Below the pieces are notes generated by a model. That model saw only the letters and a list, made by a program, of their open reading frames with translations, was not told the origin of the DNA and did no database searches. A program made the translations under genes and the position numbers. Source: Nitrobacter hamburgensis X14 (GTDB taxonomy: Bacteria > Pseudomonadota > Alphaproteobacteria > Rhizobiales > Xanthobacteraceae). From it: 32,000 bases of DNA. Within the stretch, counting starts at the first letter, position 1. Every line of letters begins with the position of its first letter. Location of the stretch: positions 866,166 through 898,165 of the forward strand of contig NC_007964.1 in assembly GCF_000013885.1 (NCBI RefSeq), given 5' to 3'. Positions 2,155-19,726 of the stretch are shown piece after piece.

Positions 2155-2165
2155 CGTCCCACCGG

Positions 2166-4157
2166 TCAGAAAAGGTATTCATCCCCCTTGGCGTGCAGTC
2201 GATGATCGCTAGATACAACCGCCTCCACGGCCTTGCGAGCGATGGTGCCGATAATGACCTGAACGCCTCCGATGTCCTTTGCAGCAGATGAAACGCTATC
2301 GAGCATCTGCTCAAAGTCCTCGTTCACGACCTCTTCCGATGCCGGCGAGTCGATGATCAGCAAGCCAGGATGCCGGCCATGCCCGCGACGCTTGGCCACC
2401 TCCACCGCCGCCAACGAGATGGCGATCTTGATACGCAATTTCTCGCCCATCGTCAGGTTGCTGAAATAGATATCGGCGCCGCCTTGGTGGACCTTCAGCT
2501 TCCCGCCGCCGTCGAGGTGCATGCTGGTGACGTGGGATACACCGAACTTCTTGGCGAGAGACATCACTGAATCGGCGATCTCCGTCAGGACGTCCGACTG
2601 CATAGAGGTCATTAGCGTCTTACTGACTTCGGTAGCGGCGCGGAGGATCTTGAGTTCGCCCTGCGTCTCGGTTTCGTCGTTGGCAGGCGATTGCAGTGAA
2701 GCCACCAGTTCCCGAAGCTGCTGGGTCTGGGCCTCCAGCTGCACCACGACGAGTTCGGGATCCGTCGGCAACGTGGAGATGGCGTCCTGAAGGTTTCGTA
2801 CTCTGCTCATTCCGACGCGGAGCCGTTCGGTCGCGTCCCTTGCTGTCTTCTCGCTGGCTTTGAGCTTGGCCTTGGCGATCTGGAGCGAAGTGGCCAGTTC
2901 CTCCACCAAGGTCTGGGCGTCCTGGATGCGATCGCTGTCCAGATCCTCTTCGTGGACCGGGAGGTCGTTCTTGCACAAGGCGCAGGTATTGCCATCCGAG
3001 TGCTGAACCGCCGTCGCGGCCTTCTCGAACGCCGCCTCGCAGGCGGGGCAGCAAGTCGGGCTGAGCTGACGGAACGAGTATCCTGCCGACCGCTCGTCCT
3101 CAAGCTGCTTGAGCCTTCGACGCGCGTCGTCGTAGCTGGCTGTGACGGACGCGACGGTCGCCGTGTCCGCCTCGAAGGTGACCCGAGCGGTCTCGGCCGC
3201 CTTCCTATCGCTCGCGATCTCCTCGTCGAGCCGCGCCAGTTCTAGCCTTTTTGCGGCGCGGTCATCGGTGCCGCGAGCCTTCGTCGCCTCCGCGAGCTGG
3301 CCCTCAACCTCGATAAGCTTGGCATTGAGCACCGCGCTCACGCCGGACTGATCTGGCCGACCTGACAATCCCTGTTCGATTTGCTTCTGCGCGGTCAACG
3401 CAGCGCTATAAGTAGAGACCCACGGCAATCCGATGAACAGTTGGAGCAGGCGAAGCGGGAGCCCGTCGATGGGTAGGTCACCGAACAGTGCCTTCGGCTC
3501 GATGGAGCTCGACAGGAAGAATGTCGAAGCTATCAGGGGCCAGCCATGGGGATGACCGCCCGTATTCTTGTTGTGGGCGTAGATCACCGGGAAATCGAGC
3601 TCCTCCATCATCAGGTGCTCGGTCTGCGACTTCAGCCCGTCCCCAGCGTCGCCTTCGTAGAGCGTGATCCACTGACCGTCGCTATCGCTCCGGCTCAACG
3701 TGGCTCTGCCCTCCGCCGTCTTCTCCTCGCCGGCGGCCTTGCGCAATTCCAAGCGATGCAGGACGTTGTCGATGCGATACTGGATTTCGATGGCCTCCAG
3801 CCACTTCCAGACGTCGGGCTTCACCCGGCCGGGAAAGTCGCCGCGGATTGCGGCTTGGAGAAGGTTCAGGACGGACGACTTTCCTCGCAGATTGCGCTCA
3901 GACATCACGGCCCAGATGCCAGTTCCCAGGCCCGACCAAGATAGATCGAACAGTCCGTCGCGCTCGGACTCGGCACGAACACCCGTCAACTTGATGCTGT
4001 CGAAGCGAAGGCTCTTGGCACGCGGCGGCGTTGTCTGAGCGCGAATACCATACTTGAGCAGCACGCTTCGAACATTCGACTCTGGACTGGTGCTGTCCTC
4101 AGCGATGGCCTTGATCCAGCCGTACTCGGTTGGCTCGATGGTCCGTTCCTTGCTCAT
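2166..4157 (-). CDS. SMC/Rad50-like ABC ATPase with a long coiled-coil insert and a double-CxxC (zinc-hook-like) apex
   Basis: The ORF-track frame is 2166..4361. I place the start at ATG 4155-4157 (MSKERTIEP) because it overlaps the upstream stop as ATGA (4154-4157). Motifs: Walker-A-like NLRGKSSVLN, signature-like LTMGEKLRI, and Walker B/D-loop GLLIIDSPASEE. Between the head halves is a ~300-aa Ala/Glu/Arg/Leu/Gln-rich insert with CPAC...CALC at its centre. Confidence 0.75.
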   Translation of the reverse strand: MSKERTIEPTEYGWIKAIAEDSTSPESNVRSVLLKYGIRAQTTPPRAKSLRFDSIKLTGVRAESERDGLFDLSWSGLGTGIWAVMSERNLRGKSSVLNLLQAAIRGDFPGRVKPDVWKWLEAIEIQYRIDNVLHRLELRKAAGEEKTAEGRATLSRSDSDGQWITLYEGDAGDGLKSQTEHLMMEELDFPVIYAHNKNTGGHPHGWPLIASTFFLSSSIEPKALFGDLPIDGLPLRLLQLFIGLPWVSTYSAALTAQKQIEQGLSGRPDQSGVSAVLNAKLIEVEGQLAEATKARGTDDRAAKRLELARLDEEIASDRKAAETARVTFEADTATVASVTASYDDARRRLKQLEDERSAGYSFRQLSPTCCPACEAAFEKAATAVQHSDGNTCALCKNDLPVHEEDLDSDRIQDAQTLVEELATSLQIAKAKLKASEKTARDATERLRVGMSRVRNLQDAISTLPTDPELVVVQLEAQTQQLRELVASLQSPANDETETQGELKILRAATEVSKTLMTSMQSDVLTEIADSVMSLAKKFGVSHVTSMHLDGGGKLKVHQGGADIYFSNLTMGEKLRIKIAISLAAVEVAKRRGHGRHPGLLIIDSPASEEVVNEDFEQMLDSVSSAAKDIGGVQVIIGTIARKAVEAVVSSDHRLHAKGDEYLF

Positions 4158-4852
4158 GGTTCCAACCCGACGATCTTGGCTAGACGTTGTTCGACCTGCT
4201 CCCGGACGGTTGGTATCACGTCGCCAGGGATGGTGTTTCCATACTCGGGGTGCTCGTATTGCCATTCCTTCAGGGCAGAACCGCTCTTGCCGCTGGCGAC
4301 CCGCATGACCAACGCCAATCGGTCGCGATACCACGCCAACTCCGGGTGATCCTGAACGCACTTTTCGAGGAACGAGATCGCCTTTGGCGATATTAGATAT
4401 TCGTACCGACGAATCTTGCCGTCATCACCAGCGAGCTTCATGGGTCTGGCTAGGCCATAGTAGCTCAGCATGGCGAGCGCATCCTCGACATTCTGGTAGG
4501 CACCGTGTCGCCAGCGGACCATCCGCACCAGTCTGACGGAAGGCTCGTCATCGAGGAAGATGCGCTGAACCGCCTCCAGCAGCTCGGGATCGCCGGTCTC
4601 CTCATAGAGATCCAGCAGGGCGTCGCCCAAGTAGTCAGGATAACGGACGAGGAAGTCCATGGCCATCAAGCGCTTTTCGGCTCTGAAGACCTTCACGACG
4701 TCCTCGGTGGGCTTGTCGGCGTCTTCGCCACCCGCAACCAATATGAAGAGCAACCGAAGCGCGTCGCGGTGTCGAGAAGTCGGTTCGCGCGCTGCTAGAG
4801 AAGGCGGCGTGTGTTCGCCCTCTGCTCCCTCTCCTTCAACCAAAATATCCAT
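4154..4852 (-). CDS. Small acidic, winged-helix-like partner protein, first gene of the ABC-ATPase operon. The start is uncertain; the ORF-track maximum is 5056.
   Basis: The frame is 4154..5056. I prefer ATG 4850-4852 (MDILVEGEG), because 5055-5225 on the + strand holds a helicase remnant and the 4853-5056 extension is AT-rich and featureless. The stop overlaps the ATPase start. The segment RLMAMDFLVRYPDYL ... YGLARPMKL ... RRYEYLISPKAISFLE looks like a wHTH by eye (inference). Confidence 0.55.
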   Translation of the reverse strand: MDILVEGEGAEGEHTPPSLAAREPTSRHRDALRLLFILVAGGEDADKPTEDVVKVFRAEKRLMAMDFLVRYPDYLGDALLDLYEETGDPELLEAVQRIFLDDEPSVRLVRMVRWRHGAYQNVEDALAMLSYYGLARPMKLAGDDGKIRRYEYLISPKAISFLEKCVQDHPELAWYRDRLALVMRVASGKSGSALKEWQYEHPEYGNTIPGDVIPTVREQVEQRLAKIVGLEP

Positions 4853-5054
4853 ATCAGCAATTGCCCCAATAGCTGCCGGGCCGATGATATTCCAAATGTT
4901 CAGCTTTCGCCAATCTTGGCAGCCTCCACTCTCGATAGAGGAAAGCAGTTTTTTCCTGAGAATCCGGGACGATTTCTTCGGGCGAGCTCGATATAGTGCG
5001 GGCAGCAACTCGGTTAGATGCAATATTATCCACGCCGACCGCGAAGCACTGTGC

Positions 5055-5225
5055 ATGACGGACGAGATACCGCGTCACAACGCATCGGAGAGCGAGGTAC
5101 GCGAAACTCGCCGTCTGTTTTATGTTGGCTTCACCCGTGCACGGTACGAGATCCATCTTATGTTCGGGGAATTCAATCCGTCCCAGTTTGTAACCGAGAT
5201 CGAGGAGCGCCGGTCCGCCTCGTGA
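5055..5225 (+). pseudogene. C-terminal remnant of a UvrD/Rep-type (SF1) helicase
   Basis: The tail of ORF 4659..5225 reads ETRRLFYVGFTRARYEIHLMFGEFNPSQFVTEIEE. This matches helicase motif VI (RRLxYVxxTRA) plus the usual C-terminal tail. Nothing upstream in this frame looks helicase-like. Confidence 0.5.
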
Positions 5226-5477
5226 AAGGCTTCGCCGAAGTCGGCGATTAGCGACTATCAAAATGGGCGATACGCGCAATGTCTGTTCACCGATTCCCGC
5301 CGCCGAAAGCCGACCTTCACTTAACGGCCTTGAAGTCAGTAATCGGACGATTGTCAGCTATCCCAAGTTCCTGCCCCAAAGCCGCCAGTCCGCTTTCCAC
5401 CCATGTCGGAGCTGAAGAGCAACGGCGCTAGGCGCTGGGAGCGGCCATCCAGCATCGCCGATTGACACGCACCCGAT

Positions 5478-5766
5478 TCAGATTTCAGTTCGCTCGGCCA
5501 AGAGCAGCGCATCCTCGACGTCTACACCGAGGTAGCGCACGGTGTTCTCGATCTTGGTATGGCCGAGTAGGATCTGTACAGCGCGCAGATTGCCAGTCGC
5601 CTTGTAGATCATTGATGCTTTCGTTCGTCGCAGCGAGTGAGTGCCATACTCTGCTCGTCGCAGACCAATCGCAGTTACCCATTCATCGACAAGGCGGGCG
5701 TGTTGCCTCGTGCTCATGTGGTGCGCCTGGTTAATCCGGCTCGGGAATGCATGGTCGTCGACTGTA
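5478..5766 (-). pseudogene. Tyrosine recombinase/integrase, C-terminal half, separated from its N-terminal half by an IS21 insertion
   Basis: Contains HSLRRT (HxxR), LLGH and VRY catalytic-type motifs. It joins in frame to 8246..8581 once the IS and one copy of the 7-bp duplication are removed (checked codon by codon). Confidence 0.85.
5760..5766. repeat. IS21 target-site duplication, left copy (GACTGTA)
   Basis: An identical 7-mer lies directly outside both IS21 termini (5760-5766 and 8246-8252). Confidence 0.8.
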
Positions 5767-5768
5767 TG

Positions 5769-6632
5769 TCAATCGGCGCCGAAGTTTGACCCCGTATCGG
5801 CGTCCAAATTTGACCCCTTTGATCGACGGGGTTTAGCGGTAGCGCTCGGTCCGTCGGAGCTGGCCGGGATTGCGGAGACGGAGCGAGCGCGGGTTGTTTG
5901 ATCATCGTCGCGGCTTTTGAAGCGCCAGCTGTCGTTGCCGGTTTCGACGATGTCGCAGTGGTGGGTCAGACGATCGAGCAGCGCGGTGGTCATCTTGGCG
6001 TCGCCGAACACGCTGGGCCATTCGCCGAAGGCGAGATTGGTGGTGACGACGATGGAGGTGCGCTCGTAGAGCCGGCTGACGAGATGGAACAGAAGTTGTC
6101 CGCCGGATTGGGCAAATGGCAGGTAGCCGAGTTCGTCGAGGACGATGAAGTCCATTCGGGTCAGATGCTCGGCGATACGACCCTGGCGTCCGTTGCGGGT
6201 CTCGATCTCGAGACGATTGACGAGGTCGACGACGTTGTAGAAGCGCCCGCGGGCACCGGATCGAATGCAGCTTCGGGCGATGGCGATGGCCAGATGGGTC
6301 TTGCCGGTGCCGGTACCGCCGACCAGAACGGCATTGCGTTGCTGGGCGATGAAGCCACCGCCGGCGAGATCATTGACCAGCGTCTGGTTGATAGGGGTGC
6401 CCTCGAACTGGAAGCCATCGAGATCCTTGGCGAGCGGCAGCTTGGCGATAGTGAGCTGGTATTTGATCGAACGCGCCTGCTTCTCGTTGATCTCGGCATT
6501 GAGCAGGTCGCCGACAATGCGTTGCGGTTCGTGCTGGCGCTTGACGGCGGTCGCCATGATCTCGTCGAAGGCGGCCTTCATGGCATAGAGCTTGAGTTCG
6601 CTCATGAGGTCGAAGAGTTGAGTGCGTTCCAT
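5769..6632 (-). CDS. istB: IS21-family helper ATPase IstB
   Basis: Shows the P-loop [14 protein letters not shown], Walker [10 protein letters not shown], and the typical IstB N-terminus ([12 protein letters not shown]). The start overlaps the istA stop by 1 nt (TGATG, 6630-6634). The C-terminus runs into the terminal repeat. Confidence 0.9.
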
Positions 6633-8131
6633 CAGACCGGTCTCCTGAGGTTGTCGTAACGGGCACAGTCAGCGATCGGCGCATGGCGCAAGGTCAGCGC
6701 CGCCGGGGTGAGGATGTTGGCTGGTGGCGCCGGCTCACGCTGGCGGGCGAGGATGTTGAGAACGACATCGGCGGAATGGACACTGTGGGCGATCGCCTCG
6801 GCACAGGCGGCCTCGACTGCCGGCAGTCCGTCGGTCAGCACCGCGTTGAGGATGTCGACCATCTGCCGATTGCCATCGTCGGCACCGGCGAGCTTGCGCC
6901 GCACACGCTCGATCGCGGCCGGCAGCACCCAGTCCTTGAACGGGGCGCCGTTGCGCAACGCGCCGGGTTTGCGAGCCAGCACCGGCACATAATGCCAGGG
7001 ATCGTAGGTCGTCTCGCCGCGGCCGAATGAACGCGGATGCTCGGCGACGATGCGTCCGTCCTGGCGGATCACGATGCGGTCGGCATAAGCTTGCACTTCG
7101 ACGGGCCGCCCGACGGCGTTGGCCGTAACCGAGTATTTGTTGTTGTCGAAGCGCACCAGGCAGGTCTTCGAGACGGATGCCGGCACGGCATGGAATCCAT
7201 CGAACCGGCCGGCATAGGGAACGAGCTTCGGCCGCTCGGCTTCGAACACTTCCCAGACCGTCTGTTCGGTCAGTTCCGGATGACGGTGCGCCTTGGCGTA
7301 GGCGATGCACTTATCCAGCAGCCAGGCGTTCAACTCGTCGAGGGTTTTGAACCGCAGCCGCGGCGTGAAGAAGCGCTCCCGGACCAGCCCAACCTGGTTC
7401 TCAACCTGGCCCTTCTCCCAGCCTGAGGCCGGCGTGCAGGCGACCGGATCGACCAGGTAATGGCTGCACATCTGCATGAAGCGGCGATTGTAGAGACGCC
7501 CTTTGCCGACGAAGATCGTCTCCACCGCGGTCTTCATATTGTCGTAGATGCCGCGGCCGCAGGTGCCCTTGAACAGAGCGAAGGCCCGGTCGTGGGCGTC
7601 GAACACCATCTCCTGCGTCTCGCGTGGATAGGCGCGAGCGAACAGCATCCGGCTGTGACAGAGCCGGACATGAGCGACCTTCACGATCACCGTCACGCCA
7701 TGCAGCAGGACAACCTCATGGCTCCAGTCGAACTGGTAGGCTTCTCCCGGTGCAAAGCTCAGCGGGACATAGGCCGCCGCCGTCGATTGTCCGCGCTCCT
7801 GGCTCCACCGTCTGGCGTAACGTCGCACCGCATCGTAGCCGCCGTCATAGCCGCGCCCGCGAAGCTCTTCGAAGACCCGGATCAGCGTCAGCTGTTCGCG
7901 AGCGGACTTCGCCGCGTTCGACGCCAGCAATCCGTCGAGATCAGCGGCCCATCGCCCCAGCTTCGGCCGCGGCTGCACCGCACGTTCGTACTCGAATGAG
8001 GTCTCCCCAGACCGCAACACCTTGCGGACCGTGTTCCGCGACACCTTCAGGTCGCGGGCGATCTCCTTGATCGTCTTGCCCTTGATGAAGTGCTCGCGGC
8101 GTATCCGCGCAATCGTCTCCACGATCAGCAT
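6632..8131 (-). CDS. istA: IS21-family transposase IstA
   Basis: Has an N-terminal HTH ([21 protein letters not shown]) and a DDE-type core (YQFDWSH ... [10 protein letters not shown] ... EKGQVEN). I prefer the start at [11 protein letters not shown] (8131). The ORF-track maximum is 8155. Confidence 0.9.
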
Positions 8132-8245
8132 CCCCAACCACCTGCTTCGTTCCAAAGCAGGCAGCGCAACAGACCAACCTATCGGGGGTCAATTTTGGAC
8201 GCCGATCCCCCGGCTCAGGGGGGCAATATTGCAGGCCGAATAACA

Positions 8246-8252
8246 GACTGTA
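8246..8252. repeat. IS21 target-site duplication, right copy (GACTGTA)
   Basis: Identical to 5760-5766 and directly abuts the CA terminus at 8245. Confidence 0.8.
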
Positions 8253-8581
8253 CCGCCGCGCCTCTCGAGCCAGGCTAGGAGACTGGCCCGCACGTCGTTG
8301 GTCAGCTCGAACTGTACGGGGCGGCCCGTCTTCTGCTGGACGACAATCGCACGCATGTGTATTTCCGGCCCAGCGACCAGGTCGCCAATCTTGATTTTGA
8401 CCAAGTCACAGCCGCGTAGCTTGCTGTCGATTGCCAGATCGAAAAGAGCGCGGTCACGAACGCGCCCTTCATGATCGAGGAAGAAGCGAATCGCCCAGAT
8501 TTGTTTTTGTGTGAAAGGCCGCTTCGTGCCAACTGTCTTTACCGGCATTCCAAGCGGCTCGGCCCTGAGTGGCAGGATCAT
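8246..8581 (-). pseudogene. Tyrosine recombinase/integrase, N-terminal half, interrupted by IS21
   Basis: Reads MPVKTVGTKRPFTQKQIWAIRFFL ... DSKLRGCDLVKIKIGDL ... VVQQKTGRPVQFELT. The frame runs ...ERRGGTV up to the duplication (8246-8252) and then continues as DDHAFPSRINQAHHMSTRQ... at 5759 downward. The rejoined protein is about 194 aa if it starts at 8548. Confidence 0.85.
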
Positions 8582-8627
8582 ATTGAGAATAACCCATTTC
8601 AGTTCTCCTTGACCGTGATTGGCCTAT

Positions 8628-8664
8628 GGAGAAACGAAAACGCCCGAGCTACAGCTCGGGGGCG
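8628..8664 (-). terminator. Putative Rho-independent terminator on the minus strand
   Basis: The minus strand reads CCCGAGC-TGTA-GCTCGGG (GC-rich 7-bp stem) followed by CGTTTTCGTTTCTCC. It lies ~230 nt downstream of the operon ending at 8891 and just upstream of the integrase start. Confidence 0.5.
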
Positions 8665-8890
8665 GAAGGAGACGGTCAGCTTATCGACAAAAGGCCTGCC
8701 GAAGCGGACAATTCCTAGGCCCGCACACCGGCGAGTTCGGCCCGAAGCCCTCAGCCCTCATCAGATTGGCCATTTGGCGAACTTCCGCGATCGCCCCAGT
8801 TTTTGACATTCGGCGCTACGGGTCGAACTTTCGAAATGCATTCGTTCGGGACGATCTTCTTCACGCTCTGGTGCATGGGCGACGACTGTC

Positions 8891-10459
8891 TCAGTGCTTG
8901 CTGGCATAGCAAATCAAGTCGAGGAGCCGAAGAAGCGCTGGTCCCCTCGGGGAAAGACGATAGCGCAGCAGCTCGCCACGCTTCTCCAGCCTTGTCGCGA
9001 ATTCCGGCACGGACTTAAGCGCTCGATTGTTGTTGTACTTGCGTACCGCAAATCCCTGGTCCGCAGTCACGGCGGCGATCTCATCGCATGTCGCGGCACG
9101 GCCAATCTTTCGCAGGGCGCGCAGCGAACGATGCAATTCGGATAGGCTCTGGCGTCCATCCGGTAAAGTATCGATTGTGCTGACCAACTCGTCGATACGA
9201 CGGAAGTAGGAACGCACATCGGAGTCATTTCGGACAACGACATCAGCGATCTCATTCGCGACGCGCAGCGCTCCGAAACGCATCTGCTCCTCGTCGAGGC
9301 GGGCAAACTCCCCAAAAGTCCGGGCGTCGCCGGGGCGCGCCCGCTTGACGTGTCGCTCGAAACGGGTACGGGGATCGGCCTCGATCAATACCACCCGCGC
9401 CGCCGGCAGCATCGAACGCAACCGCATGACCTCTTCAACCGTTCGCATGCCAGTTACAATGTTGATGTCGGCGTTCTCCCGCGCGATATAGTCGGCGGCT
9501 CGCTTCGCCACGATGTCCCAACTCCGTTTTTCGAGGAAGGTCATCGCGTCAGCCGAGTTGCTGATTGTGATCCCTTCTTCTTCGGCTATTTGTCGCAGAA
9601 GGGTGCTACCCTCGAGCGCGAAAACTGCCGTGCGCTGCCCCATCAAAAAGTCGCCAAAAGTAGATTTGCCAGCGCATTTATGGCCGATCACGATAAGCAC
9701 GTCGCGCCGATTCAACGGAAGAAGCGAAAGCTGACTTCCAACCTCCCCCTCCGCGTCCGCTGCTTGGCGTACCACATGGTTCCATCGTCCAAGGTTGATA
9801 ATGGCGTTCAGCTCCTCCAGCCGCTCGATTAGCAGTGTAAGAGACTTTACGCGGAAGTCGTATGGGAGCGACTCTTCGAACTCCATTTCACCTAGTCGCC
9901 GGTTAGTCCCCTCGGGGACGAACCATCCATTGAACGTATCTGGCGTGAGCCAAGGATATTGCGGCGAGGTAGTGAATGCCGGTGGGGCCTCTGCAACACA
10001 TCCCGACGTTTCGCCGTGGAAGAAAACCGGCCGCGACAGAGTCGGCAGCCGAAGCGCAATATCGGACTTCACCGTACAACGTCGGTCGCCTCCGCGCAGC
10101 GCGATTTGGCGATCAAGTTCCACAAAACTCGTTTCCGAGAACCACTCCTTAACGCGCGTTCCGGGATAGTCTGTCGCGCCGCTCAGCGCCTCGATTCGCA
10201 GTGACGTATCCTCGACGAACAAGACCGAGCGGCGTTCAAACTCCTGGCTGACCTGCTTCAGTGCCTGGGTGAGTAGCCCCTGTGTGTCGAGGGAATAGTC
10301 TTCGCCATAGGGTTCGTGCTGACTGCGATAATGGGTGAGCTGATACCCACTACGCATGAAGATTAGCCTAGCCTGGATCAGCTTGTCTGCGTTCGAGGTG
10401 TAGAAAAAGATTCTGAGAAGCCGTTGAAACCGGAAGACGTCGCCATATCGAAACCTCAT
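8891..10459 (-). CDS. Three-domain fusion: Ham1/ITPase-like domain, P-loop nucleotide kinase (UPF0200/dNMP-kinase-like) and a C-terminal winged helix
   Basis: The ORF-track frame is 8891..10540. ATG 10457-10459 (MRFRYGD) overlaps the upstream stop as ATGA (10456-10459). N-terminal domain: FFYTSNADKL (TxNxxK), VEDTSLRIEALSGATDYPG (compare DDSGL..aL.G.PG), GETSGCV, and a GEMEFEE...DFR tail. Middle domain: Walker A IGHKCAGKST, then TGMRTVEEV ... VVLIEADPRTRFERHVKRARPGD..TFGEF..LDEEQ..FG ... ADVVVRND. C-terminus: a wHTH-like GRAATCDEIAAVT ... LRYRLSPRG. Confidence 0.75.
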   Translation of the reverse strand: MRFRYGDVFRFQRLLRIFFYTSNADKLIQARLIFMRSGYQLTHYRSQHEPYGEDYSLDTQGLLTQALKQVSQEFERRSVLFVEDTSLRIEALSGATDYPGTRVKEWFSETSFVELDRQIALRGGDRRCTVKSDIALRLPTLSRPVFFHGETSGCVAEAPPAFTTSPQYPWLTPDTFNGWFVPEGTNRRLGEMEFEESLPYDFRVKSLTLLIERLEELNAIINLGRWNHVVRQAADAEGEVGSQLSLLPLNRRDVLIVIGHKCAGKSTFGDFLMGQRTAVFALEGSTLLRQIAEEEGITISNSADAMTFLEKRSWDIVAKRAADYIARENADINIVTGMRTVEEVMRLRSMLPAARVVLIEADPRTRFERHVKRARPGDARTFGEFARLDEEQMRFGALRVANEIADVVVRNDSDVRSYFRRIDELVSTIDTLPDGRQSLSELHRSLRALRKIGRAATCDEIAAVTADQGFAVRKYNNNRALKSVPEFATRLEKRGELLRYRLSPRGPALLRLLDLICYASKH

Positions 10460-11439
10460 GCGGATTCGTCCCGCGAAGCTCTCGCGCCGTGATTCAGACC
10501 GCCATGACATCCTAGCCAACGTGCATTGTGTGCGGCACAAACCGCCCGTAACTCGGCGACAGCACGCGTATCACTGGCTGCGAAGATTACATATACGATT
10601 GGACCCATGCTGCTCATGCCCGCAGCATAGCCCTTTGTGCGAAAGTCCTCCAATAGCTCGATGACATTCTCGCCGCACCGTTCGATCTCAAGATGCTTGA
10701 AGCCCTTGTAGGAAATCGAAGCAAGCGAGGACGCAAGCAGTTTCAAATCCTCAAGACGAAATGCAGGCAGGATCCCGTGATACAGCGACGCCATTGTTTC
10801 AAGCGCATCGTCGGGCGCGATGGGCGCATTCTCTTCAAAGAAGCGCTGCTCTTCCGAGCCGTGCGATAATTCGCCCTTGGGTAGGCACAAGCCGACTCGC
10901 CATGAAGCTGGAAAAGGCAGCCGAAGCATCAGAACGGGTGCTGAGGTGGCCGCTCTCGCACCAGAGGGAAGCAGATGATCGATCTCCTCGGCGGGTCTAC
11001 CCGCGTCCCACAATACGCCGCCCTCAAAGAAACCGTGAATGCCGATGCCCGACGCCCCGCCACGTCCGCTCAGACTTTGCTGCTCAGCCCGATTGCCTGG
11101 AAGCTCAACTAGGTGGTGATATGCTAAGATGACCGCGAGCTTAAGGGCAGTCTTTGTGCCGAGACCAATATGCTGAATCGCGTGACTATGGATGATAGCC
11201 TGAACCCGTCTTTTGCCCGCTTCGGCCAGCGTCTCGAGGAGAGCCGTCAACTCAGACTGGCATGACCTGTCCAAGTCGCTCGCCCCCTCTAACGACATTA
11301 CGGGCGCACACCTTAGTTCAACGTCGGCGGCAATCTTGTCGAGCATGAAGCCGACACCGCCGAATGCGCGGGGCGATGCAAAACCCATATCAGCTAGGGC
11401 AATATGAATGCGCGACCCCGCGCTCACTCGGACAGCCAA
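10456..11439 (-). CDS. GHMP-kinase-superfamily enzyme resembling beta-ribofuranosylaminobenzene 5'-phosphate (beta-RFAP) synthase
   Basis: The ORF-track frame is 10456..11487. I prefer TTG 11437-11439, which has AGGAG 7 nt upstream and lies 4 nt after the upstream stop (11444-11446). Motifs: RIHIALADMGFASPRAFGGVGFML, HIGLGTKTALKLAV and SGRGGASGIGIHGFFEGGVLWDAG. From memory these match the three signature blocks of beta-RFAP synthases. Confidence 0.7.
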   Translation of the reverse strand: MAVRVSAGSRIHIALADMGFASPRAFGGVGFMLDKIAADVELRCAPVMSLEGASDLDRSCQSELTALLETLAEAGKRRVQAIIHSHAIQHIGLGTKTALKLAVILAYHHLVELPGNRAEQQSLSGRGGASGIGIHGFFEGGVLWDAGRPAEEIDHLLPSGARAATSAPVLMLRLPFPASWRVGLCLPKGELSHGSEEQRFFEENAPIAPDDALETMASLYHGILPAFRLEDLKLLASSLASISYKGFKHLEIERCGENVIELLEDFRTKGYAAGMSSMGPIVYVIFAASDTRAVAELRAVCAAHNARWLGCHGGLNHGARASRDESA

Positions 11440-11443
11440 CTGT

Positions 11444-12196
11444 TCACTCCTGCGCTGCCGGCGCGGCAGCTTGCCATGTCGCCTCAAAATGGCTGTCCAA
11501 ATGGTCGAACATGAAACCGCCTCGATGCACGAGGATGGTAGGCGAGTTGCGGCTTCGCTCCGTCATCAAATACGGACCCCAGAAGATCTCGTCATCAATC
11601 CGCAATAGGTTGATCGCAGGAATGGAGCGCATACGGCGCACCTGGAACTTGACGCGATCTATATCTTCATCGGTATCGACGGCTGCTTGGAATGCTTCGA
11701 TGTCGGCGCGAATTTCCCCCCTTGCGCCGCCTTCCTCAAGGTCGCGGTAATCAGCGAGGCTCTGTGCTTTCGTCGGGAAATCTGGATCCAGCATAAGAAC
11801 TCGCACATTGGCCCTACGTGACCACTCTGCGAACTCGCGGGCGTAGTCCTCACGGAAGGACGACAAGCCTAGACCGATCAGGTCGATCCGCTTCGCCGAC
11901 CTGAGACGACGGTCGTATTGTTCCTTGATCCGCACCGAACGATGCGGGAAAACGCTTGAGATGCCGGCACTCGCTATCACCTCAAGCCTGTTCTGCGTCC
12001 GCTCGGTTAAGCGGATGTAGAGGTATAGCGCCATCCCGGCGATACCCGTCGCAAGCAGACCGCCACCCACGCTTTGTGCAAGTGTTGCACCGAACACTCT
12101 TTCACCCTCGGTTGTCATGCAGAGCATGCCCCCGAATACTAGGACCAAATGAACGCCAAGCCACATCAGGCTCGTCGGCGACCACCAAGACCGCAT
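11444..12196 (-). CDS. Two-transmembrane-helix protein with a ~170-aa cytoplasmic domain of unknown function. First gene of the operon and candidate effector.
   Basis: The ORF-track frame is 11444..12238. I prefer ATG 12194-12196 (MRSWW), preceded by GGAAGGGGAGAAA. Hydrophobic segments are LMWLGVHLVLVFGGMLCM and VGGGLLATGIAGMALYLYI. The soluble part (RIDLIGLGLSSF ... VRVLMLDPDFP ... INLLRIDDEIFWGPY) matches no family I can name with confidence. Confidence 0.7.
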   Translation of the reverse strand: MRSWWSPTSLMWLGVHLVLVFGGMLCMTTEGERVFGATLAQSVGGGLLATGIAGMALYLYIRLTERTQNRLEVIASAGISSVFPHRSVRIKEQYDRRLRSAKRIDLIGLGLSSFREDYAREFAEWSRRANVRVLMLDPDFPTKAQSLADYRDLEEGGARGEIRADIEAFQAAVDTDEDIDRVKFQVRRMRSIPAINLLRIDDEIFWGPYLMTERSRNSPTILVHRGGFMFDHLDSHFEATWQAAAPAAQE

Positions 12197-12307
12197 TTTC
12201 TCCCCTTCCACGAGCCCAACAAGGCGAACTGCACACACGTAACGAGCCTGTATCCGCGCTGCGAATCATCGCTAGCTTAAACGGAGTATTTATAGGCGTT
12301 AAACGCT

Positions 12308-12322
12308 TTGATAAAATATCAA
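12308..12322. promoter_or_regulatory. Perfect palindrome TTGATA-aaa-TATCAA in the AT-rich divergent intergenic region (candidate operator or promoter element)
   Basis: Read directly from the sequence. It lies in the AT-rich gap between the minus-strand operon (start 12196) and the plus-strand ThsA-like gene (start 12633). Confidence 0.25.
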
Positions 12323-12632
12323 TCCGACATTCTTTCATAGTAGGCACGTGAGAAACTCAGCTATCAGCCAGAAATAAGCGCGAATGATAGTCTCCCGCCT
12401 TGCTGAATTTTCGGAGCCGTTAGCGGAACGTGGCTTCGTTGCGAAAATGCAGCATAGCTGCCGTTATCGTGGCAATATCGCCGATCAAGCTTCCACGGTC
12501 ATAGGGTCTTGCAAGTCAGCAACGATGCAAGTCGTTCGTGGTTTCGAATTTCACCGCTTCCGACGATCCTTGTGGATGTGTCGTCACAATCCATTGCTGC
12601 AAAAGGCGGTACCCGCCAATCTGGCAGTGGAT

Positions 12633-13496
12633 ATGGCGACTCACCTCATCAAATCTTTGACTGTCGGTTTTCTACGGCGCTGGAAAGCCGGATTAACGCG
12701 GGCCTTTGGTGTGGCCGGAGCGATCTGGCTGGTCACTGAAATAGTGACTCGTGTCTCCAGCTCGGCGAACGATTGGCTGACCGCCAACGGAGACGTTTAC
12801 TTGGGCGGCGTCCTGCTCGCAGGGGCTATGTGGTTTGTCGCCTACTCCTACGAGCAGCGAAAGGTGAAATTTCGAGTTCCGACCACAAACAGCTACATCA
12901 CAATCAAGTTCGGTAACCTATTCGAAGAAAGGTCAGACTGGCTAATTGGCGTTAACGAGTTCTTCGACGGCCGTCTTGGACAAGTGATCGCAAAGACCTC
13001 CGTCCACGGGCAGTTCATCACTAACGTATTCCACGGCGACGAGACGCGATTTCGAGAAGCAGTGACGGCAGCTCTGGCTGGCGTGCCTTGCACATCCACT
13101 GCCAGGATGAACTTGCCAGCGGATTCCTACGAGATTGGCACCACGGCCGTCGTTGCTAACGGGTCACAGAAGGCGTTCCTCGTGGCTATGTCCCGAACCG
13201 ACCTTGTGACGCATAAGGCTGGATCAACGGTGCCCATGCTTTTCGAAGCGATGAAGGGCGCGCTCGAATCAGTAAAGAACTATGGCAACGGCGAACCGCT
13301 GGCGTTGCCGCTAATCGGCAACGGCCTTTCCAGCGTCAACTTAGAGCCGCAACACCTGCTCAGGCTCATCACGCTGGCTTTGGTGGACTTTGGGCGAAAA
13401 GTCAGCTTGCCCAAGCAAGTGACCATCGTGGCACCCGAGGGATGCTTTGAACAGCTCGATATCCGTGAAATCAAGCGAGATTGGATGAAGCGCTAG
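12633..13496 (+). CDS. thsA: ThsA-like protein of type II Thoeris architecture: two TM helices plus a Macro-like domain
   Basis: The ORF-track frame is 12384..13496. I prefer ATG 12633 (MATHLIKS), because the upstream 83 codons are Cys/Arg/His-rich and not protein-like. TM segments are AFGVAGAIWLVTEIV and VYLGGVLLAGAMWFVAY. Macro-like blocks are ITIKFGNLFEERSDWLIGVNEFFD and LALPLIGNGLSSVNLEPQHLL. Confidence 0.6.
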   Translation: MATHLIKSLTVGFLRRWKAGLTRAFGVAGAIWLVTEIVTRVSSSANDWLTANGDVYLGGVLLAGAMWFVAYSYEQRKVKFRVPTTNSYITIKFGNLFEERSDWLIGVNEFFDGRLGQVIAKTSVHGQFITNVFHGDETRFREAVTAALAGVPCTSTARMNLPADSYEIGTTAVVANGSQKAFLVAMSRTDLVTHKAGSTVPMLFEAMKGALESVKNYGNGEPLALPLIGNGLSSVNLEPQHLLRLITLALVDFGRKVSLPKQVTIVAPEGCFEQLDIREIKRDWMKR

Positions 13497-14047
13497 TGGC
13501 TTATCGAAACGGCACCTATATTGCGTTCCACGCAGAGGGTAACTCTGACCCTACCGCGTCAGACATTAGATACTACCGCACGCTGAAGATGTGGCACACC
13601 AACGATAATATCGAATTCAAGTTCGTGAACAGCCACGAGAAGGTCGCCGCCGTGCGGGACACAAGTCAGGCAGCGACTATCAAGCGGAGCCTGAGGGCGA
13701 GACTCGATAATTCAAAAAACATGGTCCTCATCATCGGTCAGCGGACTAGGTTCGATATGGACTTCGTGCCTTATGAGATCGCCTACGCGGTGGACACTTG
13801 TCGCATCCCCATTATCGCTACATATCCGGGGCAATCTGTGATCCGTGTCTCCAACGCGCTGAGGCCGCTGTGGCCCGAGGCGCTGCGGGAGAGGATAGAC
13901 AACGGCGCGGCTAGCGTCATCCATATCCCGTTCAACCAGAAGGCGATTGACGACGCCATCGGCCAGTTCAGTCACAACAAACTCCCGTTCGGCGGAGGGA
14001 TCGGTATCTACAGCGATGACGCCTATAGGTCGTTTGGGCTGCTCTAA
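13481..14047 (+). CDS. thsB: ThsB-like TIR-like domain protein (DUF1863 / MTH538-type TIR)
   Basis: Reads YIAFHAEGNSDP..DIRYY ... NMVLIIGQRTRFDMDFVPYEIAYAVDTCRIPIIATY, which fits the TIR-like pattern with a conserved Glu in (W/F)VxxEI. The track start is TTG 13481. An in-frame GTG at 13496 overlaps the thsA-like TAG (TAGTG) and is an equally good start. Confidence 0.6.
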   Translation: MDEALVAYRNGTYIAFHAEGNSDPTASDIRYYRTLKMWHTNDNIEFKFVNSHEKVAAVRDTSQAATIKRSLRARLDNSKNMVLIIGQRTRFDMDFVPYEIAYAVDTCRIPIIATYPGQSVIRVSNALRPLWPEALRERIDNGAASVIHIPFNQKAIDDAIGQFSHNKLPFGGGIGIYSDDAYRSFGLL

Positions 14048-14337
14048 GGCAATAATGGTCCTTGCTAAGGCTGGAGGCTCATACTGTCCTTATGATCCGC
14101 GGACATCGGCGGCAGATTCCAATAATCGCGACTCTATCCATGGACTTTTAGCTTCCGGCAATCGGCTTAATTGTTCGTGGCGGAGCGCTTCTTCTGGGCG
14201 ATGGTGGGAGGGAGCCCAACGACCATCACAAGGGCTCGACCTACGGCTTCGCGGTCAGCGATGTCTGCTTTTGGGCTGTGGTAAAGACGCCCTTAACGGC
14301 AAACATGGGGCGCAAAGAAGACGTCGATCCCAGGCTC

Positions 14338-15858
14338 TTACTTTTCTGTCGCTTCCCGCTGCTTGGACCACGAGAGCGGTAAGGTTTTAGGGATCGCCAC
14401 CAAAGTTGGCGTGTTTCCCGCTCCTCCCATAATTACTGCTTCTGCGATTGATGGCGATAGAAATGCGAGGCGCAGCTGTTGGCGGATGATCTTGGGATGG
14501 AGTCTGACGTCTTTAGCGAGCGCCTCGATTGAATCGTAGCGACCGGAGGCGAGGTCGTTGAGCCAGGCGTGGGCGCGGACGATCGCCTGGAGAAGCTTGG
14601 GATCGGATTTACTCTGGTCCGTGGGCTCGATGACCGTGGCGGCGTTGGTTTTTGCTACTTTCCAGGGAATCTCGATCGGACGCCCGGCGTAGGCCGGCTT
14701 CATCGCGATCCGGATGTGGTTGGCGTTGATGACGGCGCAGTCGACGCCGTCGAAGATGTCGGATGCAGCAGTGTGGCCGAGGTTGAGCCGCTCCCGAATG
14801 GTTCGCTCGATCAGTTGCTCGATCTCGGTGGCCGGCACCCGCTTGACCGATCCGGCAAGGTGCTTTCGCCCGCGCAACGCCGTGCTGACGTAGAAACGAT
14901 ATCGGACGCCGTTCTTTCTACTGAAAGTCGGACCCATCCGGTTGCCACGATCGTCGAACAGTTTGCCGGCCAGCGGTGCGTTGTTCGCAGATTGGCCCTT
15001 CGGCCGATCGACGGTGTTGGATTTAAGCTGGTCCTGGACGCGAGTGAAGGTGGTGCGGTCCAGGATTGCCTGGTGCTCGCCCTTGAACCATTTGCCGCCG
15101 TGATGAATCTCGCCGAGATAGATGCGGTTTTTCAGGAGGTAGGCGAGGGGGCCATAGGTGAAGGGAATCCCGCCCTGATACTTTTTGACCTCGGTCTTGC
15201 GGCGCTTGGTGACAATCTGCCGCTTGTCGAGCTCGGGGATCAATTTGTTGAGTGATCCTGTCTGCAGATAAAGCTTGAAGATGGTCTGGACGGACTTGGC
15301 TTCGGCCCTGTTAATGGCGAGCTTCCTGTCCTTAATCTCATAGCCGAGCGGCACCGTGCCGCCGGTCCATTTGCCTTTCCTGCGGGAGGCGGCGATCTTG
15401 TCCTTGACCCGTTCCGAGGCGAGCTCTCGCTCGAACTGGGCAAAGGACAACAGCACATTCAGGGTCAAGCGCCCCATCGAGGTCGTGGTATTGAACTGCT
15501 GGGTGATCGCGACGAACGAGATCGAACGGGCATCGAAGGTTTCGACCAGTTTGGCAAAATCGGCCAGCGACCGGGTCAGGCGGTCGATCTTGTAGACCAC
15601 GACCACGTCGACCTTGCCGGCCTCGATATCGGCGAGAAGTCGCCTCACGGCCGGGCGGTCGAGATTGCCGCCGGAATAGGCTGGATCGTCATAGCGGGCG
15701 GCAAGAGCTCGCCAACCCTGGGAGGCCTGACTCTTTATATATGCCTCGCAGGCCTCCCGCTGGGCGTCGAGCGAGTTGAACTCCTGCTCGAGGCCATGCT
15801 CGGTGGATTTGCGGGTATAGATGGCGCAGCGCAAAATGCCTCGGCGGTCAGTCGCCAT
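14338..15858 (-). CDS. Large serine recombinase (resolvase/invertase N-terminal domain plus recombinase domain)
   Basis: Reads AIYTRKSTE ... SLDAQREACEAY ... YDDPAYSGGNLDRPAVRRLL ... VVVVYKIDRLTRSL ... SFAQFERELASERVKDK. I prefer the start at MATDRRG (15858). The ORF-track maximum is 15921. Confidence 0.9.
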   Translation of the reverse strand: MATDRRGILRCAIYTRKSTEHGLEQEFNSLDAQREACEAYIKSQASQGWRALAARYDDPAYSGGNLDRPAVRRLLADIEAGKVDVVVVYKIDRLTRSLADFAKLVETFDARSISFVAITQQFNTTTSMGRLTLNVLLSFAQFERELASERVKDKIAASRRKGKWTGGTVPLGYEIKDRKLAINRAEAKSVQTIFKLYLQTGSLNKLIPELDKRQIVTKRRKTEVKKYQGGIPFTYGPLAYLLKNRIYLGEIHHGGKWFKGEHQAILDRTTFTRVQDQLKSNTVDRPKGQSANNAPLAGKLFDDRGNRMGPTFSRKNGVRYRFYVSTALRGRKHLAGSVKRVPATEIEQLIERTIRERLNLGHTAASDIFDGVDCAVINANHIRIAMKPAYAGRPIEIPWKVAKTNAATVIEPTDQSKSDPKLLQAIVRAHAWLNDLASGRYDSIEALAKDVRLHPKIIRQQLRLAFLSPSIAEAVIMGGAGNTPTLVAIPKTLPLSWSKQREATEK

Positions 15859-16345
15859 TTGACGAGTTCCCCGAACCCGAGGGGGCCGTCGATGATCGCA
15901 ACCCAAAGAAGCGCGGCCCATTCCATCTGGTGCCGGTGATTTTGCAGGCGATCTCGGACAGGCTCGCGTAGGTCTCGCCCTCGAATGCGAATCCCTCCAC
16001 GGTGACCTTCACCCGATAGGTTGCGCCGCGCCAGGTTCGTACCAGCTCCGAGCCGGCCTTGATCCTGCGCGGCAGCTCCAATTTCCCGTTCGGTTTGCTC
16101 CGGGCTGCCTTGACCAGTTGTCTCAATAACCGGCTGCTCTCCTTGGAGAGACCGCCATAGGTGCGCTCCTGAATCCGCTGGGCGATGCTGCGGCGGAGCA
16201 GGTCCGGGCCAAAGGCTTTTGGCGGTTCAGCCCGGAACAGCTCGCGATACCGTATTCTGAGGTTCGCGATCGGCATCGTCGGGAGTTTGGCCAGCTCGGC
16301 TTCGACAACCCTATCGCTGCCGACGAGGCGTGCCGGCCGGATCAT
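15848..16345 (-). CDS. DUF2924-family protein (usual partner of large serine recombinases)
   Basis: Reads LRIRYRELF ... [16 protein letters not shown] ... [12 protein letters not shown] ... [25 protein letters not shown]. Its end overlaps the recombinase start. Confidence 0.8.
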
Positions 16346-16695
16346 GACGACGCGCGACCCTTGATGCGATAGGTCCGGTCACTGCCGTCCTTGCTCGACT
16401 CGACCTTGAGTTTGAGCTTCTTTTTGACGACGCCGGACAGAAAGCCGCGCACGGAATGCGGCTGCCAGCCAGTGGCTTCGGTGATCTCCGGGATCGTGAC
16501 GCCCTTCGGACGCTGGAGCAGGGCAAGTACCGAATCTTGCTTCGAGGGACTGGAGCGGTCCTTCACTCGGAGTGCGGCAACGACGGCCTTGGCCGGCTTG
16601 GTCGCCAATCCCGCTTTGGATTTTGTTTTATAGGTACGGCGTGAACGCGTTTTGGCGGCCTTTGCCGGTTTCGGTTTACGTTTGCTGGCAGACAT
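16342..16695 (-). CDS. DUF3489-family protein
   Basis: Has a Lys-rich N-terminus, then [44 protein letters not shown] ... RTYRI. The start ATG at 16693-16695 is preceded by GAGGAG. Its stop overlaps the DUF2924 start as ATGA (16342-16345). Confidence 0.8.
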
Positions 16696-16791
16696 TTTGA
16701 TCTCCTCTGTCATCGGCACCATCAGGCGGTGCCACTGACACGACCTCGCCGACCCGGGCGAGGGTGGAGAAGTCCGTAAGGTGGCTCGCGG

Positions 16792-19245: not shown

Positions 19246-19726
19246 GGTTTTGCCATTCGCTTGTGTTAGTCTCTCCGTTCTTGGCTGCGAAGTCCTGTAA
19301 GAACGCTTCGACGACCGCCTTGTCGTCTGCGCTGAGTTCCGGCGCCTCTTGGGTCATTGAGGTTGCCGCCGCATGGCGGGCCAACAAAAATGCTGCAGTC
19401 TTCGTATTGCCTTTGAGAGAATCCTCAGCGAAGCGGTACAGCATTGCTTCTAAGACGGGAATCTTGCGCGTACCCCCGGGTCCCCTTACACCGACCATGC
19501 GATACAGTACGTCATCGAGCATCTTCGCTTCGCTTTTCCGTCCTCTTGGCCGGCCTCTTGGGTTGCCACTCTGACCGGGCTTGAATTGGTGTTCGACCGG
19601 TGGCTTGCCGTAGCCGACGTCAGGATTCCTGGCTTTGCGCAATATGCGGGCGCGTACCCGTGGCACACGTTTGGTCGGAGACGCCGTGCAGTTACTCCGC
19701 GCGTCGTCATCGCTGCGCTTGCTCAT
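19235..19726 (-). CDS. DUF5681-family protein (small-terminase-like position, copy 1)
   Basis: Reads GYGKPPVEHQFKPGQSGNPRGRPRGRKS followed by a helical tail. Its start overlaps the methyltransferase stop as ATGA (19723-19726). Confidence 0.7.
   Translation of the reverse strand: MSKRSDDDARSNCTASPTKRVPRVRARILRKARNPDVGYGKPPVEHQFKPGQSGNPRGRPRGRKSEAKMLDDVLYRMVGVRGPGGTRKIPVLEAMLYRFAEDSLKGNTKTAAFLLARHAAATSMTQEAPELSADDKAVVEAFLQDFAAKNGETNTSEWQNHEK

Follow-up and report, generated by a model that had tools for sequence, protein, structure and literature searches.

Architecture and protein families of the cassette

We analyzed a 32,000-nucleotide stretch of the Nitrobacter hamburgensis X14 genome (below, the window) and focused on a block of three genes on its minus strand, at positions 8891 to 12196. 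An initial annotation, made from the sequence alone, had described this block as encoding a protein with two transmembrane helices (2TM), a beta-RFAP-synthase-like GHMP enzyme and a fusion of Ham1, kinase and winged helix-turn-helix (wHTH) domains. Its proposal was that a small molecule of ribosyl or nucleotide origin is produced, altered or sensed by the two enzymes, with the 2TM protein as executor of the response. The cassette and its borders comprise the following features.

12197..12431, minus strand: upstream non-coding region, within the DNA shared with Chelativorans sp. M5D2P16, whose homology ends there
12196..11444, minus strand: gene 1, 250 amino acids (aa), ATG start with GGGGAG before the ATG
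11439..10456, minus strand: gene 2, 327 aa, TTG start at 11439-11437
10459..8891, minus strand: gene 3, 522 aa
8660-8643, minus strand: terminator-like hairpin and T-tail, ~230 nucleotides (nt) 3' of gene 3, 7 pairs (6 of them G-C), then CGTTTTCGTT

The three genes are translationally coupled: gene 1 ends with TGA (11446-11444), the next four letters are ACAG, and then comes the TTG of gene 2, which has AGGAG directly upstream, and genes 2 and 3 overlap in the ATGA at 10459-10456. The gap-free packing, the 4-nt gap and the ATGA overlap reported by the initial annotation were all correct, in coordinates as well as in junctions. The GC content at third codon positions was 0.60 to 0.66 in the three genes, compared to 0.77 to 0.81 in the neighboring IS21 genes, 0.75 in a serine recombinase gene and 0.81 in a catalase gene, in agreement with the earlier view that the block is AT-richer than its flanks, though the difference is moderate. 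The terminator previously placed at 8628-8664 held only in part. A hairpin followed by a T-tail is indeed present, but it lies outside the conserved unit, and such sites are no more frequent in the region than in shuffled sequences (4 found versus 3.9 expected). Since the hairpin is located at or just beyond the edge of the conserved DNA (8658), it may belong to the flank. The non-coding region at 12197-12431 moves with the cassette and presumably represents its promoter or regulatory region; a sigma-70 consensus scan of the minus strand of this region gave no match.

The product of gene 2 is 100% identical to an annotated "sugar kinase-like protein" of N. hamburgensis X14. It scored above the cutoff of the beta-RFAP synthase family model TIGR00144 (138.5 bits; cutoff, 113.5) and remained far below that of the RFAP-synthase equivalog NF040726 (145.4 bits; cutoff, 328). 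Its closest solved structure is ForT (6YQQ; E = 8.4e-47), the phosphoribosyl pyrophosphate (PRPP)-dependent C-glycoside synthase of formycin biosynthesis (PMC8183095, PMC9832568). Judging from these matches, gene 2 is a GHMP-fold PRPP-dependent glycoside synthase sharing both the fold and the family of ForT/PyfQ and beta-RFAP (RHP) synthase. Mutagenesis of ForT showed that PRPP binding requires R19, T106, and R135 and that catalysis requires E211; K263, S174, and L24 touch the aromatic carboxylate (PMC8183095, PMC9832568). Residues R19, H99, T106, R135, and S139 of ForT correspond to R10, H90, T97, R126, and S130 of gene 2, and L24, S174, E211, and K263 correspond to L15, S159, E197, and K248; each of the nine is either invariant in the gene 2 family or conserved to at least 90%. 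Gene 2 therefore retains the PRPP-binding Arg/Thr/Arg set (R10, T97, R126) and the pyrophosphate loop His (H90), as well as the essential Glu, the Lys, the carboxylate-binding Ser and the ring-stacking Leu. In contrast, the positions that form the acceptor pocket for the aminopyrazole dicarboxylate in ForT are changed (S21 to H12, T138 to A129, and Q266 to E251). Since the catalytic and PRPP-binding residues are kept and the acceptor positions are not, we infer that the type of reaction is conserved and that the acceptor differs.

The genomic surroundings also differ from those of ForT and the RFAP synthases. Gene 2 is not surrounded by a formycin-type or other antibiotic gene cluster, and methanopterin or methanofuran genes were absent from the window and did not adjoin the cassette in ~50 loci; the initial annotation had likewise seen no other methanopterin or folate gene in the window, and none was found. 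Conversely, archaeal and other genuine RFAP-synthase loci lack both partner genes. In NCBI and JGI annotations, the cassette proteins appear as RFAP synthase family, NTP (nucleoside triphosphate) pyrophosphatase and dephospho-CoA kinase.

Gene 3 matched the Pfam families Ham1p_like (PF01725; E = 4.5e-11; 43.4 bits versus a cutoff of 22.5) and AAA_33 (E = 3.7e-16). Its AlphaFold2 model (mean predicted local distance difference test [pLDDT] score, 83) comprises three domains.

9794..10417, minus strand: Ham1/ITPase domain, residues ~15-222
9176..9709, minus strand: P-loop nucleoside monophosphate (NMP)-kinase-like domain, residues ~251-428
8906..9142, minus strand: C-terminal wHTH, residues ~440-518, modeled by AlphaFold2 as helix-helix-helix-beta hairpin-helix

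In Foldseek searches, the Ham1 domain matched PH1917 (TM-score, 0.85), MJ0226, ITPA, and KomB (E ~1e-10). Conserved residues include TSNxxK (T21, S22, N23, K26), E49/E53, E83-D84-T85-S86, R126, and D201-F202-R203; among these, TSNxxK and E83-D84, which contains the catalytic Asp (D84), are invariant. The domain thus has the fold, the Pfam score, the phosphate/metal motifs and the catalytic Asp of the HAM1/ITPase superfamily, while it reached only 25 of the 145 bits set for the housekeeping RdgB/ITPA equivalog TIGR00042. The hypoxanthine pocket, FGYDP ... SHR, reads FNGWF ... DFR in gene 3, and the base-pocket loop carries an insert of ~12 residues (YPWLTP). The kinase domain resembles SSO1041, an AMP-bound adenylate-kinase-related protein (TM-score, 0.90), and matched 3LW7/3H0K by sequence (E = 1e-16). 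Its Walker A motif is GHKCAGKST, with G259, C262, G264, K265, and T267 invariant, and lid arginines are present (R366, R369, R373, R375). In the wHTH, which had no match in a sequence search of the PDB, residues R473, Y475, N476, N478, R479, A480, L481, K482, and P485 are invariant. A distant clade of relatives, linked to DNA methyltransferases, shares the winged-helix pattern (KNNVSRYFNQ...YRLS), and the C-terminal domains of the two clades, compared as profiles, aligned in register, though with an E value of only 0.021. Homology of these domains between the close and the distant clade is likely but not proven by this comparison.

Gene 1 has no family in Pfam, NCBIfam or PADLOC, and a sequence search of the PDB returned only noise (E above 0.4). 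Its AlphaFold2 model (pLDDT, 89.9) could be divided as follows.

Residues ~7-26 and ~37-60: two N-terminal hydrophobic helices, modeled as transmembrane helices
Residues ~78-245: cytoplasmic domain with phospholipase D (PLD) fold, without the HKD motif

The best Foldseek matches of gene 1 are non-catalytic PLD-like proteins, namely, the TrmBL2/TrmB effector domain, FAM83 DUF1669, and MITD1. The PLD nucleases SauUSI and Zucchini came next, together with PLD2 and PssA (E = 6e-4 to 8e-3), followed by a further PLD nuclease, NgoAVII (1.5e-2), and a weak match to BfiI. The PLD fold is found without the catalytic motif HxK(x)4D ... GSxN. Gene 1 reads A-I-N-L-L-R-I-D ... G-P-Y-L at this site, with isoleucine and asparagine at the His and Lys positions. 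For the clade of the window copy, a PLD nuclease was ruled out because both the His and the Lys are absent. Invariant residues of the gene 1 family include R86, Y94, R97, D105, R132, R151-D152-x-E154-E155, N196, D201, and S215-R216-N217. The predicted fold resembles ligand-binding pseudo-PLD domains such as the sugar-binding domain of TrmB, and we propose gene 1 as a candidate ligand-sensing effector. Overall, profiles, AlphaFold2 and Foldseek confirmed the initial domain reading of all three proteins.

Distribution, transfer and exchange of modules

To follow the cassette across genomes, we searched 185,579 species, each represented by a single genome, with a gene 2 profile and used the best 80 loci. 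The order PLD-like gene, synthase, Ham1-kinase was found in ~50 of them, mostly with overlaps of a few bases. A Ham1 homologue directly follows the synthase in 50 of the 80 loci and is fused to the kinase in 46, and the PLD-like gene precedes the synthase wherever contig and open reading frame (ORF) calling let it be seen. The hosts belong to about ten phyla and include Alpha-, Beta-, and Gammaproteobacteria, Actinomycetota, Acidobacteriota, Chloroflexota, Bacteroidota, Verrucomicrobiota, Myxococcota, and Campylobacterota, across which the distribution is sporadic; the cassette is also carried by Rhizobium plasmids. The Ham1-kinase fusion family comprises 345 clusters at 90% identity, and a gene 1 profile run against 1.84 billion representative proteins gave 1,696 matches (430 with E <= 1e-10).

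The only recurrent neighbors outside the cassette are DNA methyltransferases and integrases, the flanks being otherwise variable. The initial annotation had suggested asking whether the trio is syntenic in other genomes and whether its homologues sit in methanopterin, folate or cofactor operons; we found the same block order across phyla and mobile or defense-related surroundings instead of methanopterin or folate operons. A comparison of 131 neighbor proteins with PADLOC in alignment mode was uninformative beyond the methyltransferases; since redundant methyltransferase models filled the 25 best matches, it yields no quantitative figure for defense enrichment.

In Chelativorans sp. M5D2P16, DNA identity of 90.6% covers window positions 8658-12431 only and ends at both borders, which delimits the transferred unit and sets it apart from the adjacent Thoeris genes. 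We could therefore rule out that the trio is a part of Thoeris: the DNA homology ends before thsA, and relatives such as L001 carry the trio without Thoeris, indicating an independent system. A phage origin, or a pathway for hypermodification of phage DNA, was ruled out as well. Gene 2 homologues are absent from 50,697 GenBank phages, and the whole trio occurs, as cargo, in only one IMG/VR contig.

With regard to known systems, none of the three proteins matched a PADLOC-DB 2.0.0 family at E up to 0.1. The literature that we searched, a scope with most subscription journals outside it, contained no account of the cassette, and a prior description elsewhere is possible; the one mention of GHMP in a paper on conflict systems refers to mevalonate kinase. 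The statement of the initial annotation that no named system has this gene content thus holds for the PADLOC 2.0 models and the papers searched. In loci L025 and L026 (Peregrinibacteria) and L027 (Dormibacterota), the partner of the synthase is a protein-kinase-like/choline-kinase-like gene, a lone P-loop kinase or both; these loci have neither Ham1 nor a recognized PLD-like gene and may be further variants or a different pathway.

Many gene 1 relatives keep only the PLD-like domain and carry it behind another N-terminal module. According to Pfam and PADLOC labels, these fusions are as follows.

P0414: patatin phospholipase + PLD-like (PADLOC CBASS phospholipase effector, E = 3.8e-67)
P0424 (E = 3.5e-42), P0439, P0494: bSEFIR/TIR + PLD-like
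P0417: dCMP/MafB19-type deaminase + PLD-like
P0445: metallophosphoesterase + PLD-like
P0400: nucleotidyl cyclase + PLD-like
P0412: DUF4062 + PLD-like
P0476: GT4-conflict + PLD-like
L028, L052, P0452: alpha/beta-hydrolase + PLD-like

The fusion gene adjoins a gene 2 homologue and/or a Ham1-kinase or kinase gene in 10 of the 10 contigs that are long enough (the P0452 contig was excluded). This matches the pattern of CBASS and Thoeris, in which one sensor domain is kept and the killing modules that it drives are exchanged.

Non-homologous equivalents replace the enzymes as well. In a Plantactinospora operon (L067), a NUDIX protein takes the place of Ham1 and a PfkB kinase that of the P-loop kinase, whereas P0446 is a 2TM-PLD-like protein fused to a kinase. 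Loci L087 and L094 have the order effector-PLD-like, synthase, small P-loop kinase, and pyruvate-kinase-like barrel (PF00224), and in L094, which lacks Ham1, a CYTH gene and a ribonucleotide reductase lie close by. Finding a pyruvate-kinase-like enzyme in a conflict operon is unusual; such an enzyme would suit a phosphorylation step from diphosphate to triphosphate. Several variants do without Ham1 (L087, L091, L092). On the basis of these comparisons, the constant core is composed of the synthase, the kinase and the PLD-like domain, the triphosphate hydrolase being optional, which points to a nucleoside polyphosphate, or a phosphorylated non-canonical nucleotide, as the active molecule. Separately, XRE-type helix-turn-helix (HTH) domains are joined to PLD-like domains in P0449 (locus L093) and also in P0453; an NB-ARC/TPR STAND protein and a HEPN_Apea gene lie alongside, with no synthase near.

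The defense island around the cassette

The locus is a defense island on a mosaic of mobile DNA. The other features of the window are as follows.

265-5056, minus strand: Lamassu, with LmuA at 265-2154 (E = 3e-156), LmuB at 2166-4361 (E = 7.5e-185) and LmuC at 4154-5056 (E = 2e-78), all by PADLOC
5769-8155: IS21, with IstA at 6632-8155 and IstB at 5769-6632, interrupting a tyrosine integrase
8189-8581: integrase fragment of 130 aa (Phage_integrase, E = 5e-4)
12384-14047, divergent from the trio: type II Thoeris, with ThsA (2TM-Macro) and ThsB (TIR)
14338-15921: large serine recombinase

The integrase fragment, the recombinase and the divergent Thoeris pair correspond to the disrupted integrase, the serine-recombinase module and the back-to-back Thoeris-like pair of the initial annotation, to which Lamassu is now added as a further flanking defense system. 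Pfam had no match in LmuA, LmuB or LmuC. The PADLOC match of ThsA starts at residue 88 of the listed ORF, which probably places the real start of thsA near 12633; about 50 nt at the 5' end of that ORF lie inside the cassette DNA, as homology with Chelativorans extends to 12431. Transposase genes are also present to the right, beyond the serine recombinase. Positions 17845-21087 and 29212-30618 contain prophage- or gene transfer agent-like remnants with two large-terminase genes and a DUF5681 gene, and the ParB-N6_N4 DNA methyltransferase at 19723-21087 is an orphan of phage type, ~8 kb from the cassette.

Some relatives of the cassette have restriction systems, of the MmeI type or type I, or a NACHT ATPase next to them. 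In Sphingomonas citricola (L003), again in a defense-island setting, an MmeI-type restriction-modification enzyme and a 1,334-aa NACHT/AAA protein flank the cassette (5376-8831 and 12784-16788), the latter with a weak REase-TIR-like N terminus.

Proposed signaling mechanism and its alternatives

With moderate confidence, we favor the view that the cassette is a signaling defense system whose messenger is a PRPP-derived non-canonical nucleotide. It would act as a self-contained, horizontally transferred unit against phages (and other mobile elements) that uses small-molecule signaling. From sequence, structure prediction and comparative genomics, we infer the following steps. Gene 2 would join PRPP to a planar aromatic or heteroaromatic carboxylate, giving a non-canonical, probably C-linked, ribonucleoside 5'-monophosphate. 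This product would then be phosphorylated by the kinase domain of gene 3 and could be brought to the triphosphate by the host nucleoside-diphosphate kinase or, in some variants, by the pyruvate-kinase-like gene. The phosphorylated nucleotide would be bound by the PLD-fold domain of gene 1, upon which the fused two-helix module would harm the membrane, and the infected cell would stop growing or die. Finally, the Ham1 domain would return the triphosphate to the monophosphate, keeping the system silent without infection and resetting it afterward. Candidates for the sensing of infection are the wHTH domain, the supply of the acceptor substrate and an inhibition of Ham1; the operonic methyltransferase of many relatives suggests that DNA methylation status may feed into activation. 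The strongest support for the signaling idea comes from the combination of a constant PLD-like domain with a swappable killing module. These comparisons support the earlier reading, in which two enzymes handle a ribosyl or nucleotide-derived small molecule and the 2TM protein executes the response, and the computational checks suggested with that reading all turned out favorably.

The operating logic resembles that of known messenger-based abortive-infection systems, with differences in each case. Like CBASS and Pycsar, the cassette would pair a signal-making enzyme with an effector in which the sensor domain stays constant and the killing module varies; 2TM effectors are shared in kind, and one variant, P0414, has a CBASS-like effector module, its patatin being close to CBASS phospholipase effectors. 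However, no CD-NTase, pyrimidine cyclase, SAVED, STING or Cap4-type sensor was matched by PADLOC or Pfam; the signal enzyme is instead a predicted GHMP-fold PRPP-dependent synthase, and a cyclic nucleotide is not predicted. With type II Thoeris, the cassette shares a 2TM module joined to a putative ligand-binding domain and would share a ribose-containing messenger, but the trio has neither a TIR nor a Macro domain, both of which belong to the neighboring genes.

The likeness to Kongming lies in a three-gene nucleotide-metabolism operon, located in defense islands, that contains a Ham1-fold protein. The messenger of Kongming is deoxyinosine triphosphate (dITP), a non-canonical NTP (PMC13454610; bioRxiv 10.1101/2024.12.20.629578), as the initial annotation had noted. 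Kongming consists of an adenosine deaminase (KomA), a HAM1-like protein (KomB) and a SIR2 protein (KomC), and it needs an NMP kinase and the host nucleoside-diphosphate kinase for dITP. Neither an adenosine deaminase nor a SIR2 protein was found in the trio or its relatives. The cassette also encodes its own kinase, its proposed sensor has a PLD fold, and its nucleotide would derive from PRPP, not from a modified dATP. In the defensive HAM1 of Kongming, the catalytic Asp is replaced by His and the protein acts as a sensor (bioRxiv 10.1101/2024.12.20.629578), whereas D84 is invariant in the cassette. Because it keeps the catalytic Asp, unlike KomB, the Ham1 domain of gene 3 is likelier to be an enzyme than a sensor.

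Several observations weigh against the signaling model. The three-gene cassette contains neither an acceptor-making gene nor a recognizable infection sensor. Unregulated, a kinase and an NTP pyrophosphatase joined in a single polypeptide would seem to run a futile cycle. The many invariant charged residues of the PLD-like domain mean that it could be an enzyme instead of a sensor, and the HTH-PLD-like relative P0449 is not located beside a synthase, so the domain is not exclusive to the system; it may have a broader sensory or regulatory role in conflict loci. In the distant clade, the PLD-like protein lacks the RDxEE motif and keeps the His, with no Lys, at the HKD site, and this clade may operate in another way, perhaps with a PLD-like protein that is catalytically active. 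The frequent operonic methyltransferases hint at a DNA-level step outside the model and have no counterpart in CBASS, Thoeris or Kongming. Finally, the neighbor genes in the loci were called by a simple longest-ORF rule.

Where present, the methyltransferase gene lies directly upstream on the same strand and often overlaps the first gene. In the distant clade (~30% identity; L031-L078 and the Rhizobium plasmids L081 and L082), a D12-like adenine methyltransferase starts a four-gene operon in 18 of 18 judgeable loci and forms its own D12-like family (~375 aa, intact DPPY). The close clade has a methyltransferase directly upstream in 10 of 27 loci. At least four families are represented, namely, two D12 types, N6_N4, and C5; the deaminase variant L086 carries an N6_N4 enzyme, and the annotation on Rhizobium plasmids reads [quoted passage not shown] No adjoining methyltransferase was found for the window copy and its closest relatives (L001, L005-L007, L013, and L017).

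Because this association is not explained by a pure messenger model, we kept a methylation-gated, restriction-modification-like scheme as an alternative. Here, the cassette would be the "restriction" arm, held in check by host DNA methylation, and unmethylated invader DNA would be recognized, perhaps via the winged helix of gene 3, and would set off the response. The upstream methyltransferases of both clades fit this scheme, and swapping of methyltransferase families is typical of restriction-modification logic. However, the window copy lacks the cognate methyltransferase in its operon, and so do its closest relatives. There is no recognizable nuclease site in any component, the PLD-like domain being devoid of HKD, and the fused effectors are membrane, lipase, TIR, and deaminase modules, not DNA cutters. 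Furthermore, the winged helix shows strong conservation of its recognition helix, unlike a sequence-specificity determinant. BREX and DISARM resemble many relatives in having an operonic methyltransferase beside proteins without an evident nuclease, and DISARM also has a PLD-family protein, but their other components are not shared. As a full account, methylation gating seems unlikely to us; it is compatible with signaling and could serve as its sensing step.

A nucleotide analogue that acts directly on the virus appears somewhat less probable still. Prokaryotic viperins combine a nucleotide-modifying enzyme with a nucleotide kinase in defense islands. By analogy, a C-nucleoside triphosphate would poison phage polymerases, Ham1 would shield the host pool, and the membrane protein would be an accessory. 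The kinase, the pyruvate-kinase-like gene, Ham1 or NUDIX, and CYTH in one variant all suit a pathway that handles an NTP analogue. C-nucleotides, among them the formycin precursor, are products of ForT-family enzymes, and C-nucleosides have antiviral activity (PMC8183095). Unlike viperins, the cassette has no radical-SAM enzyme. The universal retention of the PLD-like domain would go unexplained, as would its fusions to classic suicide effectors (CBASS-type patatin, bSEFIR/TIR, and deaminase). A universal effector-type partner argues for signaling over direct chain termination.

It is very unlikely, in our view, that the cassette has no role in defense and represents a mobile metabolic or natural-product module for C-nucleoside or cofactor-like synthesis, salvage or cleaning of the nucleotide pool. 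All three enzyme folds are metabolic in origin, as are the NCBI and JGI annotations, and NUDIX and phosphatase tailoring steps are known from nucleoside-antibiotic pathways. Yet no locus examined has methanopterin, folate or acceptor-biosynthesis genes nearby, and the variable flanks contain integrases, transposases, restriction systems, Lamassu, and Thoeris. The fusions to patatin, TIR, deaminase, and GT4-conflict modules, the DNA methyltransferase partners and the sporadic spread across phyla also speak against a metabolic module. Lastly, depletion of NAD+, dNTPs or ATP is an established defense strategy and both enzymes use up central nucleotide precursors, but an abortive infection without a messenger, in which the synthase would burn PRPP and an acceptor (e.g., p-aminobenzoate) and Ham1 purine NTPs, is highly improbable, given that it would make the kinase domain and the PLD-like effector needless, that Ham1 is dispensable in L087, L091, and L092, and that the altered Ham1 base pocket suggests a special substrate instead of bulk NTPs.

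Extending the signaling model to all relatives, we suggest more tentatively that they form a widespread, hitherto unrecognized immune-signaling family, in which a PRPP-derived, probably C-linked, non-canonical ribonucleoside di- or triphosphate made by a ForT-like synthase would be read by a pseudo-PLD sensor attached to one of at least nine effector modules, often under the control of DNA methylation. If true, this would represent a new messenger chemistry, with PRPP-dependent ribosyl transfer to an aromatic acid in place of cyclization, NAD cleavage or base deamination, together with a new sensor domain, the catalytically dead PLD fold. DNA methylation might then also be tied to messenger-based abortive infection, and the many bacterial proteins annotated outside methanogens as "beta-RFAP synthase family" or "non-canonical purine NTP pyrophosphatase" would gain a physiological role. 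The patatin and TIR variants offer simple biochemical readouts for purification of the ligand. A natural C-nucleotide could also come to light, from a class of compounds whose antiviral pharmacology is known. Overall, every component and the proposed chemistry would be new to immunity.

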